Assembly: GCA_016839765.1 (NCBI GenBank)
Contig: JAEOTP010000007.1
Span: forward strand, 96,151 to 160,150
Direction: 5' to 3'
Origin: Promethearchaeota archaeon
Lineage (GTDB): Archaea; Asgardarchaeota; Lokiarchaeia; Sigyniarchaeales; SOKP01
Length of the DNA stretch: 64,000 nucleotides
The notes below the pieces were generated by a model. The model saw only the letters and a list, made by a program, of their open reading frames with translations. It was not told the origin of the DNA and searched no databases. Both the position numbers and the translations under genes were made by a program. Numbering within the stretch: the first letter of the stretch is position 1; the number at the start of each line of letters is the position of its first letter. Shown in pieces: positions 13,521 through 64,000 of the stretch.

Positions 13521-13720
13521 TTCAATCGACTTATTTCAATTTTTAAAATAATAATAAAATTTTATTTATCCTGCTTTTTAAAATAATCTCTTAGTAGATT
13601 ATTAAATAAAGTTGAATGTTATATAAACAATGTATTTTTATTTTACTTCATATTTTATCATGGGATAATTGGAGGTAAGAAATTATCAAAAATAACTTAG
13701 TTAAAACTATTTTAGATTTA

Positions 13721-25445: not shown

Positions 25446-27731
25446 TTAAAAAACTTTTAATTCTGCTTCTTTCCATTTATCATATTCATTAAAAATAGTA
25501 TCAATTTTATCCAAAATCTTTTTAAGTGTTTTTTTTGTGTCTTTATTTTGACCAAACGTATCAGTAATTACATTATATATATTAACATTAAATTCTAAAG
25601 TTAGGTCAGAGATTTTTTCTAAGTCTTCTTTATTAATTCCGTTTTCCTCTAATTGTTTAAAAATATCTTCAAATTCCTGTCTTAATCGATTTGTTGCTAT
25701 TAATGATTTAGAACATTTTTTAAAAAATTGCTTTTCTTTTTCATAAACTAATTGATCTTCTTCAGATAAATCTGAAGTACCATTAATCACTTCTAATCTT
25801 TCATTAAGGAGATTTATTACTCTTTCATAGGTTTTAATTGCATCCAAAATCTTAACCATGCTCTTAATTAAATTATTTTTCCTTAATAGTCGTGCTTCTA
25901 TTATTTTTAAATTAGCATCTTCATAATAAATCTGCAATTCTCCGAATGTGCTTTTTTCTCCTTCAGCAATTTTTAATACTATCTGTTTTAGATCTTCATT
26001 ATGTAAACTTCTTTCTTTCTGTGATAAATCATCACTTTCTAGTAAGTTATAAATCTGATTTGCCATACTTTTTATCGAGGTTGCTTTAATGTTTAGCTCC
26101 CGCGCTTTTTGTTCAATATTGGTTATGCTCCTAAATTCACCTTCTTTTTCACAGTAATTAAAAATTATAATAGCTTCACTAATTAACTTGTTAAATTTTT
26201 CAGGACTAGTCAATATATAATATTTAGCATCTTGAACTTTTTGAATTGCTCTATCCATTTGAATTTCTAATTCAAAAATATAGTCTAATAAACCAACTTG
26301 TTTTCGTTCAGATAGAATCATCGATTTGGTGGTTAAATCCTTTCCAACGCTCCGACTGGCAAAAATCCATAAAATACACGCTGGTATCCACAAAAACACA
26401 GAAATAAACATCATATTATATATTCCACTATTATTAAACATACCATTCAAAAATGATATTAAGAAATAAGACACAAATAAAGTAAGTCCCTTTCCAATTT
26501 GCTCAGAAAGGTTTAAGAACGAAATAGACGTTCCTCTATGTTCGGGTAAATTGATATCAATCATAACAGCATTTCTATTCGCTACTGGACCAGCAATTAG
26601 AATTGTACCAATAAGCCCAAAAATAAAATAATAAATATAATTGGGATATTTCGAAAAAATTTCTCCTAATGTTAAGAAAATATAATTGGCAAGTTCAGAT
26701 GTTGGAATTGGACTAGGATAAGTAATATTTAAAATAGTTATACTAACAGGCTTAATAAGAAGCAGTGTAACTAGATAGAAAGGGAAAGCACTGATCATAC
26801 AAACCATTGCCAGTCTTGTTCTATTTTTCTTATTTTTTCGATATAAAATATCTCCTAAATAGGAAAGAACTAAATTTCCAATAATATATCCAATACCTAA
26901 TATACCTGCTAAGATAGTAGCGGTTTGTAACCGAATTTGTAGTGGTAAATCATTTAAATAATATAATGTTAACATTGAGGTTAGAAAATATATTGTAACT
27001 GTTCCGGGAATAATAGAAAAAAAGCTTTGGTAGATGAGATATCGATTCGTCTTTTTTTTTAAGATTTTAGATAGATCTTTTTTTGAAATAGTATAACTAT
27101 ATTCAAGATTTAGTTCCGTTAAGTCTAATAATTCAGCCTCACTTACACCACGTTTGGGTATTTTAACAAAAAAAAGAAAAAATACTATGGCTATACTTAT
27201 ACCAGATAACAAAAAGAATGGGAATCTCCATGTTAAGATTGGACCAATAAATGATGATAAAGCTTGTCCAACTCCATTTGAGACTGAACTTAAAATTGCT
27301 AAAGTACCAAACCAACCAGATCGTTCATCAGGCGGAATAGCATCAGAAATGATAGAGTATCCTACTGGTAATACACAACCCAGACCTGCTCCACTTAACA
27401 TCCTTGAAACTACCAACATAATGTAGCTCGTTGAAAAGCCAGTTAGGGCCATTCCAAATGTCCAGGAAAATGCTCCTGCCATTATAACTTTTGTTCTATC
27501 AATCCGATCAGTATAATAACCCCACAATAAAGCAAAAAAAGCGCTTACCACTATAAAAAAAGCATCTGGAATTGCTAATAATGCCTCTGGAATATTAAAT
27601 TCTAATTGAATAGCTGCATAACTAGGGATCAGCATATTAGCACATGCTATTGATACAAATAACAATAACATTACTAATAAAATTGGAGTTAAATCCTTCA
27701 GTTTAATTTTTGTTAATTTAAAGCGTCCAAT
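25446..27731 (-). CDS. MFS transporter fused to a ~290-aa soluble helical tail; probable ATT start at 27731
   Basis: MFS motif A WGYYTDRIDRTK, second GDILYRK; frame stays open 5' of ATG 27671 and includes the start of TM1 (LTPILLVMLL); AAGGT precedes ATT 27731. Confidence 0.8.
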   Translation of the reverse strand: MGRFKLTKIKLKDLTPILLVMLLLFVSIACANMLIPSYAAIQLEFNIPEALLAIPDAFFIVVSAFFALLWGYYTDRIDRTKVIMAGAFSWTFGMALTGFSTSYIMLVVSRMLSGAGLGCVLPVGYSIISDAIPPDERSGWFGTLAILSSVSNGVGQALSSFIGPILTWRFPFFLLSGISIAIVFFLFFVKIPKRGVSEAELLDLTELNLEYSYTISKKDLSKILKKKTNRYLIYQSFFSIIPGTVTIYFLTSMLTLYYLNDLPLQIRLQTATILAGILGIGYIIGNLVLSYLGDILYRKNKKNRTRLAMVCMISAFPFYLVTLLLIKPVSITILNITYPSPIPTSELANYIFLTLGEIFSKYPNYIYYFIFGLIGTILIAGPVANRNAVMIDINLPEHRGTSISFLNLSEQIGKGLTLFVSYFLISFLNGMFNNSGIYNMMFISVFLWIPACILWIFASRSVGKDLTTKSMILSERKQVGLLDYIFELEIQMDRAIQKVQDAKYYILTSPEKFNKLISEAIIIFNYCEKEGEFRSITNIEQKARELNIKATSIKSMANQIYNLLESDDLSQKERSLHNEDLKQIVLKIAEGEKSTFGELQIYYEDANLKIIEARLLRKNNLIKSMVKILDAIKTYERVINLLNERLEVINGTSDLSEEDQLVYEKEKQFFKKCSKSLIATNRLRQEFEDIFKQLEENGINKEDLEKISDLTLEFNVNIYNVITDTFGQNKDTKKTLKKILDKIDTIFNEYDKWKEAELKVF

Positions 27732-27879
27732 AAGCTTAACCTTTCTAATTTTGTTATATTTAATAACATTAGAGAATTAAAAAAGCTTTCAAACCGATAA
27801 TTTTTTAAGTAATGCTCTTAATTTTAATAAAATTTGATAAAAGGAAAACAAATTTATTCAATTATAGGAAAAAAATTAT

Positions 27880-53356: not shown

Positions 53357-53505
53357 AAATAACTTTCTTTTTAATTTTTTTTTCTATGGCTTAAATTATA
53401 ATAATTTAATAATTCATAAAGGCGAATTTTAAAATTTTTTAATAATTGTCTAATTTAAACTTACTTTGATTTTATCTAGAGAGTATTTTTTTGAGGTAAT
53501 AAGTT

Positions 53506-53946
53506 ATTAAAGAGAAATTTATTCCAGTTCAAATAGACCAAGAACTTTGTTTAAGATGCGAAAGATGTTTACGGGCATGTAAAGCTAAAGCGATATATTT
53601 TGAGCATAGTATTAGAAGAGTTGATTATGAAATGTGTAAAGCATGCCTAAATTGTGTCCAGGTGTGTCCTAGGAATGCAATTGAAGTAACTTCGATACTT
53701 CATCCAGATCAAATAGTAAGTATTAAAATAGACCATGAAAAATGCAGTATGTGTGAAAAGTGCCTCGATAAAAATGGAATATTTTGCCCCAAAAATCTCT
53801 TCTATAAAGCAATTGTGAAGAAAGTGGGAAGGGAAGAAGAAGGAATTAGATATAAGTTTAGGGAAATCATAAAATGTCGAGGTTGTTTGAAGTGTGAATT
53901 ATCATGCCCAGAAAGGGCAATACAACCCGTAAAATATGAAGTTTAA
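53506..53946 (+). CDS. Polyferredoxin (four 4Fe-4S motifs), probable ATT start
   Basis: In-frame CLRCERCLRAC lies upstream of ATG 53632; frame bounded by TAATAA 53497-53502; GAGGT SD 8 nt before ATT 53506; further CKACLNCVQVCP, CSMCEKC..CP, CRGCLKCELSCP. Confidence 0.85.
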   Translation: MKEKFIPVQIDQELCLRCERCLRACKAKAIYFEHSIRRVDYEMCKACLNCVQVCPRNAIEVTSILHPDQIVSIKIDHEKCSMCEKCLDKNGIFCPKNLFYKAIVKKVGREEEGIRYKFREIIKCRGCLKCELSCPERAIQPVKYEV

Positions 53947-57362: not shown

Positions 57363-59309
57363 TTAATCGGAATTTTTATGTATACCTAATCTTCGTTCAG
57401 AAGTATTTAAAATTTTAATTAGCATATCTTTATAAGACAAACCATCAAATTTCGCCATTTTTGCGAGATGTCCATCCCAGCACCATCCTGGGTTAGGATT
57501 AACTTCTAAAAGCTTTGGATTTCCTTCGCCATCTAGTCTCCAATCAAAACGAGCGTAATCTCTACATTCTAACCTTTCGAATAGTTTTAAAGAGCAACTT
57601 TCAATAATTTGAATAGTATCTTCTGGAAGTTCTGCTGGAATCGATTTAAGATTCCAATAAGGAGAATCTGGTAACCATTTAGCCTCATACCCACAAATGT
57701 TTGGTAAGTCAGGTGGCAAACTTGAGTAATCCTCTTCAATTATTGGAAGTACTAAATAGTCATCTGGGGGATTTCCAATAATACCTAAAGTTAAATCCTT
57801 GCCAGGAAGAAATTGTTCAATCAATATTGGTTTGTCATATCCAAATCTTTCTCTAATATCTGTAATCGCGTTTAAAAGTTGTTCTCCATTATTAACTACA
57901 CTTTTTTGCGTAATACCAAAGCTAGAATCTCCAAAATTTGGTTTTACAATTGCTGGGAAATATAAAGGTAAATCTATAATTTTATCTTCGGGTTTTATGT
58001 AAATCGCTTCTGGTACAGGAATTTCTAATTCCTTAGCAATCCCTCGAATTAATGATTTATCATAACAAAATGCTAGGCACTGAGGCCCAGAACCTGTGTA
58101 AGGAATATTTAAAATTTCTAATAGAGCTGGCACATGTAATTCCTTTCTAGCCTCGTTTAAATAGCCCTCATCACATAAATTAAAAGCATAATCGACTTTT
58201 CCTTTCATTTTTTCTATATCATTAATTAGAGTATCATGATTGCTTAAATAAGAGAAATAATATCCTTTTAATTCTTTTAAAGCTGCTTTTAATTGGTCTA
58301 TTGTGTAAAAATCATCATCATCAAAAAGGGTAGATGGTTTAAGTGTATCCGGCTTACTGGGATCACCAAAAATCACGACAACTTTCTTTTCGATTGGCGA
58401 TACTTTTCTTTTAATTTCAGTCCATTCTTTTTTAACTATAGCACTAACTATTATCCTCCTTTCCATCATACCTAAATCTTGTTGTCTTTGTGAATCAGGT
58501 GTGATTGTCCCATGAAATTTAATATCACTAAAACCTAATTTTTCTAAGATTTCAGAAATACTTTTTCTAGAATATAGCCTTTCAGCATAAAATTGATCTA
58601 CTAATACTCCTTTATTTACATGATTTATAACTTCTCGAGAAATAAGTCTTTGCTTATCTAGAGATAATGAGCGTTCTCGGCAGACAAAATAATTTTTATC
58701 AATCCATTCCCAAGAGCGAGATTGAAAATTATCTTTTAAATATTCTCCATCGGTTAGATCAATTAGAATTTTTCCCCATGGTTTTAAAATACGAAATACT
58801 TCCTTTAAAACTTGATAATCATCTTTTATAGATTCAAAATAACCAAAACTATTTCCCAATATCATAAGAATATCAAAAGAATCAGGAGGATAAGGTAATT
58901 TGCGTGCATCGCCCTCACGAAATTTACAAATTAATCCTAATTTTTTAACATTTGATTTAGCTTTTTGTATTAAGTATCTTGATCGATCTAATCCCTCAAC
59001 ATTTTCAAAACCTCGTTTAGCTAATTCAATTGAATGTCTACCTTGACCACAACAAAGATCTAAAATATAATGATCTGGGCGAATTCCTAACACTTTGGAA
59101 AAAAAGCTAACTTCAAATGAGGTGATATTTTGATCTTCAACAACATCTCCGTCAGTTTTTAAATAATAAGCATTAAAGATATTTTTCCACCAATCTTTCT
59201 TTACAAATTCCTCCAAATTAGAGACAGGTCCAAGACAAATAGGTTTTGAAGCCTGATTTCCATTTATTACCGATTTTTTCTTACTTATATTATTTTCTCT
59301 TAATATCAT
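57363..59309 (-). CDS. Class I SAM methyltransferase fused to a D-Ala-D-Ala-ligase-like ATP-grasp domain
   Basis: LDLCCGQGRH, GDAR, GNSFGYF, LKPWG; then FNLCDEG, IPYTGS, IVKP..GDSSFGI, EQFLPG, RDYARFDWR, LEVNPNPG. Confidence 0.88.
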   Translation of the reverse strand: MILRENNISKKKSVINGNQASKPICLGPVSNLEEFVKKDWWKNIFNAYYLKTDGDVVEDQNITSFEVSFFSKVLGIRPDHYILDLCCGQGRHSIELAKRGFENVEGLDRSRYLIQKAKSNVKKLGLICKFREGDARKLPYPPDSFDILMILGNSFGYFESIKDDYQVLKEVFRILKPWGKILIDLTDGEYLKDNFQSRSWEWIDKNYFVCRERSLSLDKQRLISREVINHVNKGVLVDQFYAERLYSRKSISEILEKLGFSDIKFHGTITPDSQRQQDLGMMERRIIVSAIVKKEWTEIKRKVSPIEKKVVVIFGDPSKPDTLKPSTLFDDDDFYTIDQLKAALKELKGYYFSYLSNHDTLINDIEKMKGKVDYAFNLCDEGYLNEARKELHVPALLEILNIPYTGSGPQCLAFCYDKSLIRGIAKELEIPVPEAIYIKPEDKIIDLPLYFPAIVKPNFGDSSFGITQKSVVNNGEQLLNAITDIRERFGYDKPILIEQFLPGKDLTLGIIGNPPDDYLVLPIIEEDYSSLPPDLPNICGYEAKWLPDSPYWNLKSIPAELPEDTIQIIESCSLKLFERLECRDYARFDWRLDGEGNPKLLEVNPNPGWCWDGHLAKMAKFDGLSYKDMLIKILNTSERRLGIHKNSD

Positions 59310-61527: not shown

Positions 61528-63858
61528 ATGGTTGATGAGGAATTAAAATTTTTTGATAAATCAATTATTTTACAAAAAAAAGAAGAATTAGATTCTTCTT
61601 TTAAAATAAGATCATATAAGGATAAATTAAAACTAATGAAACAAAAAAGAATTCCTCAAAAACCGATAAAAGAAGTTATAGAGAACCTCTTTTTAAGAAA
61701 TAGCTTAATTTCCAAGAAAACCAAAAATTCTATTTCTAAAGTTATTTATTGTCAAGAAGATCGGATTGTTATCGTTGTTACTAAATCAGGAAAAGATATT
61801 ATCTATAATCGAGACAAATTAATTCAAAAATATGGTTGGTTCTTTTATATAGCAAAATCAGAAAAGAAGCAAAAGGAAAAAAAAAAAGAACTAAAAAAAG
61901 AAGAACAAACAATTAGCACTGAGACTTACCAATATGATGATAACTCCATTGTCATTGAAGAAAAGCTTAATATGCGTTCTCTTTATAATACAAAAGAATA
62001 TTTTCATTATAAAAAGCTTATGGAATCTAACAATACAGTTCAAATTCCAATCAATGATGTTTTAGACGACTTTTTTCTTAAGTATAACAAAATCCCTCAT
62101 AAAGAGAAGAAATCTATTAAAAAAATAATTTATTATCAAGAAGAAAGAGTTATTGTCATCAAATCATTAATCGGAGATATCATGTATGAAAATCTAGAGG
62201 AAATCGTGAGAAATTATGGTTGGTATTTTTACATAACAGGAATTCCGGTAGGAGATAGTGAAATTTCGATAGCTATTGATAAAATAGAGAAGAAGTATGA
62301 TGAAACTTATTTTAATGAAATTTCTCTTATAAATAGTCCAGCTAAATCAAATAATGCTCGAATAACGATCTATCCTATAGTTCTTAAACCAAATCATAAT
62401 TGCCATATCCTAAGTTTAGGAAACTTAAATCTTCTGTTGGATTGTGGACTAACAGAGCCAAATGAAGAAGAAGAAATTGAAGGAGATTTAAGACATATCG
62501 AATATTATTTACAAAATCTACCTGAGATAATAAATGAAGAAATAAGAAGAAAATCAGAAAATGAAATTGCAGATATTATATCAATTGAGGAAAATTTAGA
62601 AAATTCTATTGAATTAAAAAAATCTGAAAAAGAAAAAAATAACGTTATTAGTGAACCAAAAATCGATGCGATCTTCCTTTCTCATAGTCATTATGATCAT
62701 GTTTCTGGTTTAAAGGAATTAATTAGGATGTATCCTGAAGTTCCAATTTTATGTTCGAGAATTTCTTTAGATTTATATCTTCTTAGAGATTCTAATTTTC
62801 TAAAACAAGAATCCCATGAAGAGATTGAAGAAGAAGAATACCGAAATGTTGTGAGAAATGTAATTTACGTAGAAAATGGGATAAAATTAAGGTTTAAGGA
62901 AAGAGGATGTTATCTTTCTTTTTACCATGCAGGTCATATGCCTGGTGCCTTGATGCTTCTTGCAAAAGTAAAAGATTTTAGATTTTTATATACTGGAGAT
63001 TATACATACCATGACATAACCCCATTTGCAGGGACAAGAAGATTTTTAGGACAAATATCACGTCCTATTGATTATCTCTTAATTGATGGAACTAGTGCTA
63101 ATGAAGATTATGGTAATTTATCTGATCAATTTCATAGTCTTATTCTATTTTTGGAGCAAAAAGCAGAGTATGAGGATAATGTTCTAATTGGAGCGGATCC
63201 ATCAAGCTTAGCTATCACTTTTATGCTGACCTTTTGGAGATATTTTAGGAAATTACAATTAAGAAAAGATTTCAAGAAACGCCCCAATATTTATGTAGAT
63301 ATGATGGTACGGAAAAACATTCAGGTAATTAACCATAGATATGAGTATATATATGGACCAATATCAAATTTAATTCGTGAAAAAGCAAACCCATTTAATA
63401 GCATTAAATTTAGATGGTTTGATCATGAAGATTTAGATTTTTTAAGAAAGAAAAATAATATCATTATTTCTCATCCTCCAGATCTTTCATATGGAATCAT
63501 TAGAAATATTATCAACGTAATTGGACGTAATCCGCATAATCTAGTATTTCTGGCAGGTTCAATTAATGAAAAACCTGGTGAAGACCTAATCCAGGGGAGT
63601 GATGAAATTCTATTCTCAGAGACGTGGAAGGTGCCATTTAGAGCCTTTTTAATCAATACTTTTGTTCCCTCTCTAAAAATAAAACTACATGCTGACAAGA
63701 ATCAATTAACTGAAATGGTAAAGACTCTTGAACCAAAGGAAGTTTGTTTTTTTCATCAATCTGCTAAAAAATTAATAAATATAGTAGATTATGTTAAAGA
63801 ACTCGGCGTTGAAAAAGTATCTTTACCAAAAAAGAGAAGACTTTCAATATTAAATTAG
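61528..63858 (+). CDS. Beta-CASP metallo-beta-lactamase ribonuclease with duplicated KH-like N-terminal domains
   Basis: LLDCG, SHSHYDH, AGHMPGA, YTGDY, motif B LHAD, motif C FFH. Confidence 0.85.
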   Translation: MVDEELKFFDKSIILQKKEELDSSFKIRSYKDKLKLMKQKRIPQKPIKEVIENLFLRNSLISKKTKNSISKVIYCQEDRIVIVVTKSGKDIIYNRDKLIQKYGWFFYIAKSEKKQKEKKKELKKEEQTISTETYQYDDNSIVIEEKLNMRSLYNTKEYFHYKKLMESNNTVQIPINDVLDDFFLKYNKIPHKEKKSIKKIIYYQEERVIVIKSLIGDIMYENLEEIVRNYGWYFYITGIPVGDSEISIAIDKIEKKYDETYFNEISLINSPAKSNNARITIYPIVLKPNHNCHILSLGNLNLLLDCGLTEPNEEEEIEGDLRHIEYYLQNLPEIINEEIRRKSENEIADIISIEENLENSIELKKSEKEKNNVISEPKIDAIFLSHSHYDHVSGLKELIRMYPEVPILCSRISLDLYLLRDSNFLKQESHEEIEEEEYRNVVRNVIYVENGIKLRFKERGCYLSFYHAGHMPGALMLLAKVKDFRFLYTGDYTYHDITPFAGTRRFLGQISRPIDYLLIDGTSANEDYGNLSDQFHSLILFLEQKAEYEDNVLIGADPSSLAITFMLTFWRYFRKLQLRKDFKKRPNIYVDMMVRKNIQVINHRYEYIYGPISNLIREKANPFNSIKFRWFDHEDLDFLRKKNNIIISHPPDLSYGIIRNIINVIGRNPHNLVFLAGSINEKPGEDLIQGSDEILFSETWKVPFRAFLINTFVPSLKIKLHADKNQLTEMVKTLEPKEVCFFHQSAKKLINIVDYVKELGVEKVSLPKKRRLSILN

Positions 63859-63946
63859 ATTTTTTACATCCAAGAATAACTATTAAAAAGTTAGTTTAAT
63901 AATTCTTATTTAGATATCAAATTAATAATTCTCAGGTTGAATCAAT

Positions 63947-64000
63947 ATTTACTCAGAAAAAGTGATGGATCATTTCAGAAATCCTCGAAATATGGGAGAA
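63947..64000 (+). CDS. iscU: IscU/NifU-type Fe-S scaffold, 5' part only; probable ATT start
   Basis: Reads (I)YSEKVMDHFRNPRNMGE, the classic IscU N-terminus; in-frame TGA at 63938; AGGT SD-like motif at 63934. Confidence 0.85.
   Translation, partial: MYSEKVMDHFRNPRNMGE

Follow-up and report, generated by a model that had tools for sequence, protein, structure and literature searches.

Shine-Dalgarno-led ATT, ATA and ATC codons as probable translation starts in a genus of Loki-type Asgard archaea

[quoted passage not shown] In bacteria, infC, the gene for IF3, starts with AUU or AUA and E. coli pcnB provides a further case; like the genes described below, these place a near-cognate AUU behind a Shine-Dalgarno (SD) element (PMC4705826; PMC2830850; 10.1101/063800). 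IF3 limits its own synthesis via its AUU start (PMC4705826), yet E. coli, with an AUU-started IF3, has only two confirmed AUU genes (10.1101/063800), so feedback of this kind does not by itself force genome-wide use. The infC, cvfC1, ccpN and citZ genes of S. aureus carry AUA or AUU behind an extended SD and keep them among relatives, in a low-GC setting as here (PMC13009471). Deinococcus dnaA (ATC), rpsL (CTG) and infC (ATA) draw on the same codon set and were likewise found through conserved N-termini that annotation had cut off (PMC2830850). Among the Asgard archaea themselves, the atubA gene of a Kari lineage has a likely ATT start behind a ribosome-binding site and, as in the present genome, a truncated database protein (PMC13394414).

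The window, the whole stretch of 64,000 nucleotides analyzed here, comes from an uncultured Loki-type Asgard archaeon of a different family from the cultured P. syntrophicum MK-D1 (assembly 3.32 Mb, 29.7% GC). It ends where its contig (C96) ends, within the first 18 codons of iscU (NifU_N; 63947..64000, forward strand); the remainder of the gene did not turn up in the rest of the assembly. The original prediction, made from the letters alone, was that the ATT at 63947..63949 occupies the initiator Met position. This is borne out: the ATT is followed by Y-S-E-K-V-M-D-H-F-R-N-P-R-N (motif YSEKVMDHFRNPRN), residue 1 pairs in an alignment with residue 1 of the solved archaeal IscU 4eb5_C, and in other families the iscU homologues carry ATG here. 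The full-length orthologue L020 matches PF01592 (NifU_N) with E 3.9e-48 over residues 2-126 (profile positions 2-125 of 127). Among 23 syntenic orthologues in the genus the start codon is ATT in 14, ATC in four, ATA in three and TTG in two, never ATG; all of these codons are one base from ATG, and a tree based on the upstream gene requires at least eight changes of start codon. That upstream gene, of the metallo-beta-lactamase/beta-CASP type (61528..63858, forward strand), served as the synteny anchor and lies upstream of iscU in 22/22 orthologous loci. On the other side, most relatives have an HMA-domain heavy-metal ATPase-like gene 3' of iscU, often TTG-started by eye, which the contig break hides here. 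Codons 2-6 read Y, S, E/D, K, V in 23/23 orthologues and differ almost only by synonymous changes, a hallmark of translation, and codons -6 to -1 show no conservation and are rich in stops. The in-frame TGA three codons 5' of the ATT (63938-63940) and the AGGT 9 nt before it (63934-63937) are both present as predicted, and together make up a weak SD-like element, AGGTTGA (63934..63940, forward strand), whose TGA recurs as codon -3 in 15/23 orthologues. The better register is GTTGA at 63936-63940, because the relatives conserve G(G/T)TGA 5-7 nt before the start codon. No RNA structure was found at the iscU start (z +2.4).

The iscU ATT lies only 54 nt from the contig end, as would suit an assembly error, and genes of this kind might also be pseudogenes that have lost their starts; we consider either explanation extremely improbable. 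An error at iscU is very unlikely because the two closest relatives are identical to the last 99 nt of the window at 92/99 and 93/99 nt and both have ATT. Furthermore, 22 other genomes contain intact iscU frames of 123-129 codons with the same class of start codon, and aIF1, a single copy of which was found in this genome, has the same type of start. A different reading is that iscU is translated from the in-frame GTG at 63962 or ATG at 63965, and the other genes from downstream ATGs, the ATT being incidental. Codon 7 is indeed ATG in 20/23 orthologues; however, it is Leu in the other 3/23, two of which are ATC-starting genes, and one ATC-starting iscU has TTA there and its first standard start at codon 16. 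The position of the GTG is GTG in only 2/23, the SD would sit more than 20 nt from such a start, codons 2-6 are constrained at the protein level, and ferredoxin and aIF1 would lose metal-binding cysteines. YS(E/D)KV is present in all relatives and neither GTG 63962 nor ATG 63965 is conserved across them, so that the comparison of codons in the 23 orthologues largely refutes a downstream start, which we hold to be very improbable. It should be noted that the genome has a second IscU (L002, G000:C17:77070-77438), ATG-started and found order-wide, whose 259 aa include ~140 aa of C-terminal extension, and a third, NifU-like gene (C35:11224) whose start was called as ATT.

The arrangement of SD and ATT had also been predicted at 53506 and 27731 in the window, and both cases survive orthologue comparison, each with one ATG orthologue. 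The first is a polyferredoxin of 146 aa (53506..53946, forward strand) with GAGGT (53493..53497) 8 nt 5' of the ATT, the AGGT of which is kept in most orthologues, and with in-frame TAA TAA just 5'. Its start codon in 15 genomes is ATT in 12, ATC in two and ATG in one. The first ATG (53632) lies 42 codons 3', beyond the first CxxCxxCxxxC motif, and a start there would delete a full Fe-S motif. The second is an MFS transporter of 761 aa (25446..27731, reverse strand), in which AGGT (27739..27742, reverse strand) precedes the ATT by 7 nt, the frame holds no standard start as far back as the stop, the next ATG is 20 codons 3' and the model described below gives a posterior of 0.93. Across 22 genomes the codon is ATT in 11, ATA in eight, ATC in two and ATG in one. 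In several relatives the SD itself contains a GTG or TTG in frame, which makes the start ambiguous in those copies. Two further candidates in the window are uncertain, an ATC (13685..13687, forward strand; posterior 0.5) behind GGAGGT and 12 codons 5' of the called TTG 13721, and an ATA (59286..59288, reverse strand; posterior 0.83) with an in-frame ATG 7 codons 5'. The expectation that gene callers would truncate such proteins is correct for the public record of this contig, in which the ferredoxin has 104 aa and the MFS protein 741 aa, and fails for the ferredoxin of some relatives: their NCBI records give it the full 146 aa, those of others 137 aa, so annotation guided by homology does recover the ATT start in some cases.

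The same type of start is found in the gene for the factor that normally rejects AUU. The aIF1/SUI1 gene (G000:C91:35178-35519, reverse strand; locus L062:1450-1791) is present, intact and in the single copy found, and starts with ATT. Over 80 loci the aIF1 start codon is ATT in 77 and ATC in three, with neither ATA nor ATG, and in 80/80 there is no standard start 5' of the Zn knuckle. Most internal Ile columns use the three codons freely, and codon 6 (Ile) is also ATT in 72/80, which weakens the claim of special ATT conservation at codon 1. The aIF1 SD itself holds an in-frame TTG-TGA start-stop pair, 4-5 codons 5' and kept across most of the genus, and second, divergent aIF1 copies occur at L054 (G005) and L057 (G007), with apparent ATT starts behind GAGGTG. 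In iscU, ferredoxin, MFS and aIF1 (80/80) alike, the stretch that separates the upstream stop in frame from the conserved N-terminus contains no ATG, GTG or TTG, and the SDs are complementary to the 16S 3' end (read from genus relatives) at start-type spacing, that of iscU being weak. On these comparisons we regard the start assignments as very probably correct.

The genome-wide count proposed with the original prediction yields about 7%, and we conclude from sequence that very probably about 7% of genes in the genus (bounds 2-8%) start at ATT, ATA or ATC (collectively ATH), ATT being used more than GTG. A start model fitted by EM over 2,441 long frames, in which 61 codons were allowed and the 58 non-standard ones had an equal small prior, gave ATG 75.6%, TTG 10.7%, ATT 4.2%, ATA 2.6%, GTG 2.4%, ATC 1.0% and CTG 0.6%. 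In a control in which random codons took the place of true starts, the model recovered them without bias to ATH. On samples of ~250 genes the EM was unstable, with ATH estimates from 0.6 to 8.6%, and with 0 or 7% for one genome (G030) depending on the set-up, and it was therefore replaced by a likelihood-ratio test in which context was trained on ATG/GTG/TTG only, a junk class was added, and the 58 codons were then admitted singly. Five codons, each one base from ATG, improved the model (2dLL: ATT 67, ATA 35, CTG 21, ATC 12.5, ACG 10.9; the sixth codon reached 2.6), with joint shares of 3.8, 2.2, 0.6, 0.9 and 0.3%, respectively, and the junk class shrank from 9.1% to 1.3%. A model-free frame test looked behind strong SDs that have no standard start within reach: ATH occupies 92/252 of the in-frame positions there and 36/498 of the out-of-frame ones (p 2.5e-22), and Ile makes up 10.5% of interior codons. 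An SD 4-mer precedes 36% of ATG, 62% of TTG, 76% of GTG and 89% of ATH calls; there is some circularity in the last figure, since the SD is among the features by which the model calls starts. Single calls are fallible, since the model miscalled aIF1 (AAG 0.84, ATT 0.11) and left the ferredoxin out. The strict floor is 48 genes (2%) with an ATH start, at a posterior above 0.8, that lack a standard start both upstream and within 10 codons. That the genome-wide share amounts to several per cent is, to judge from these sequence tests, a conclusion we hold with good confidence. In this sediment genus, which has been sampled very widely, gene callers restricted to ATG/GTG/TTG would truncate or miss ~50-190 proteins in each genome, and some of the truncated proteins lose Fe-S or Zn ligands, with effects on structure prediction and heterologous expression.

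In 147 orthologue pairs, the codon opposite an ATG-anchored start is TTG in six, GTG in six, ATT in four and ATA in two, and never TTA or CTN, though these are common opposite internal Met; conversely, 2/5 ATH genes in the pairwise data have ATG in the partner. A count of forced N-termini (19/371 orthologue pairs) was too noisy and was dropped as an estimate, as shadow frames and AT-rich sequence upstream can pass for conservation. Such data bear on whether the weak starts are merely tolerated or are selected, gene by gene, for low or regulated expression, as with cvfC1 and ccpN in S. aureus. Selection could explain why ATG is so rare in genes whose start codon changes frequently (iscU 0/23, ferredoxin 1/15, MFS 1/22), and AUA and AUU starts in S. 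aureus give ~10% of the AUG output (PMC13009471). However, with a GC content of ~30% few ATG would be expected even if the ATN codons drifted freely, kin are not independent in the orthologue counts, and single ATG orthologues do exist, as do the ATG partners of two of the five paired genes. We therefore consider selection as the general cause rather doubtful, and it can hold for some genes alongside a low stringency of initiation.

The trait is unevenly distributed among related archaea. Two other genomes of the genus (G018 and G008) have 5.5% ATH starts (n=546), and G030, from another family and with an aIF1 that starts with ATA, has ATT at 2.5% and CTG at 0.9% (joint 2dLL 22, n=430). In MK-D1 and G032, which have the same GC and an aIF1 that starts with TTG, the ATH share is lower, 0.9% and 0% (joint 2dLL 3.2 and 0; n=269 and 242), in samples that, as throughout this comparison, cover about a tenth of each genome. 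The frame test in these two shows a weak ATH excess, p ~0.03 versus interior Ile and not significant versus the other frames, and they contain a few plausible-looking ATH candidates. The ATH signal appears to go with an ATT or ATA start of aIF1 (G000, G018+G008, G030), and the two genomes with TTG show little of it, a contrast that is suggestive only because of the weak residual excess in MK-D1 and G032 and because it is drawn from three lineages. MK-D1, with little or no signal, serves as a control and not as a test organism, and the contrast between the genus and a related cultured species makes the origin of strict AUG selection testable.

The original prediction had suggested inspecting aIF1, aIF1A and aIF2 for substitutions; in aIF1 none is obvious in loop 1, which reads KWGR in both G000 and MK-D1 and whose K/R variation does not track with the ATH trait. 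The corresponding residues in P. abyssi aIF1 are R31-Y32-K34 (PMC6237735). Nor does aIF1 show the change expected of a loss of fidelity of the Sui type, being neither absent nor altered at its ribosome-binding loop. The 16S anti-SD of the genus, read from relatives since G000 has none assembled, ends in the usual GAUCACCUCCU. The initiator tRNA gene has the normal identity elements (A1:U72, CAT anticodon, three G:C pairs), and no obvious substitution was found in these elements, the anti-SD or aIF1 loop 1; nor was an initiator with an Ile anticodon seen in the incompletely detected tRNA set. The initiator tRNA-Met gene (G000:C91:11313-11447, forward strand) was missed by ARAGORN and has two apparent introns: one interrupts the gene at the usual 37/38 site, and the other, ~31 nt long, lies in the variable loop region. 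ARAGORN also reports a tRNA-Sec (TCA) gene at G000:C34:4361-4453, and several frames in hydrogenase/Hdr-like genes end at an apparent TGA.

Animal mitochondria have a wobble-expanded initiator tRNA with a modified C34. The starts described here could be real and yet be caused by such a tRNA, or by a changed aIF2, aIF1A or ribosomal P site. Third-position variants (~7%) do far exceed CTG and ACG together (~1%), and G000 has two aIF1A paralogues (L337 on C47 and L341 on C63, both ATG-started and with long basic N-terminal tails), as do 13/26 other genomes of the genus, compared with one copy in the three other-family genomes searched. Nevertheless, the significance of CTG and ACG and the abundance of TTG fit a general relaxation, ATT and ATA are also expected from AT-biased mutation, and the initiator tRNA gene and the anti-SD look ordinary. 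We consider this explanation unlikely.

Relaxed start selection in this lineage, as originally predicted, is supported by both the orthologues and the genome-wide test, and its cause is something we infer. Based on the start positions, the codon spectrum, the link to the SD, the start of aIF1 itself and the lineage contrast, as read from the sequences, we put forward a hypothetical mechanism, SD-positioned near-cognate initiation at AUU, AUA and AUC by the ordinary Met-tRNAi under low aIF1 stringency, to which we give a probability of roughly 0.7. We propose that the SD element fixes the P site on a near-cognate codon (AUU, AUA, AUC, rarely CUG or ACG), where the ordinary initiator Met-tRNAi (CAU) would pair with one mismatch so that the protein begins with Met. 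These starts would be tolerated in that aIF1, the normal rejector of AUU, is too scarce or too permissive, and its own AUU start may hold aIF1 at a level at which AUU still works, like bacterial IF3. AT-biased mutation could then move SD-led genes between ATG, TTG and ATT/ATA/ATC. The incorporation of Met, the efficiency of initiation and aIF1 feedback as the cause are the parts of this scheme that we infer, and we would give even odds that the level of aIF1 is the main cause of the relaxation. More tentatively still, the start codon of aIF1 (ATT/ATA versus TTG/ATG) might predict near-cognate use across Asgard lineages, with AUU feedback pinning fidelity low, a proposal we think somewhat less probable than its opposite. 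If true, aIF1 feedback would connect, through an archaeal case, the autoregulation of bacterial IF3 with that of eukaryotic eIF1, and would shape a whole proteome.

One of the closest parallels is infC, which like aIF1 is a fidelity-factor gene with its own AUU start; IF3 and aIF1 have unrelated folds, however, and autoregulation is known for the former and only proposed for the latter. The known systems also differ from the present one in extent. E. coli has two confirmed AUU genes compared with the ~170-190 ATH genes estimated here. In S. aureus there are four genes, established by Ribo-seq and reporters (PMC13009471), whereas here several per cent of genes are involved, as judged from sequence, and the exchange among ATT, ATA, ATC and TTG and the often short SDs are features of this lineage, unlike S. 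aureus. Deinococcus has at least four such genes, a number called unusually many, two of them with peptide evidence (PMC2830850). The Kari atubA case is one gene from another Asgard lineage, described as rare and with no genome-wide claim (PMC13394414). Compared with archaeal initiation as reviewed, the same factors are present (aIF1, aIF1A and an initiator tRNA with A1:U72) and initiation is SD-led, but ATT is estimated to be used more than GTG, and the lineage thus departs from the description of archaeal starts as AUG, GUG and UUG with aIF1 rejecting AUU. The literature searched, the coverage of which is incomplete, contained no account of ATH starts used across a lineage or of archaeal aIF1 autoregulation. 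What appears to be new in this genus, judged by its genomes, is both the scale, with several per cent of genes affected, and the lability, with start codons exchanging freely within the near-cognate set.
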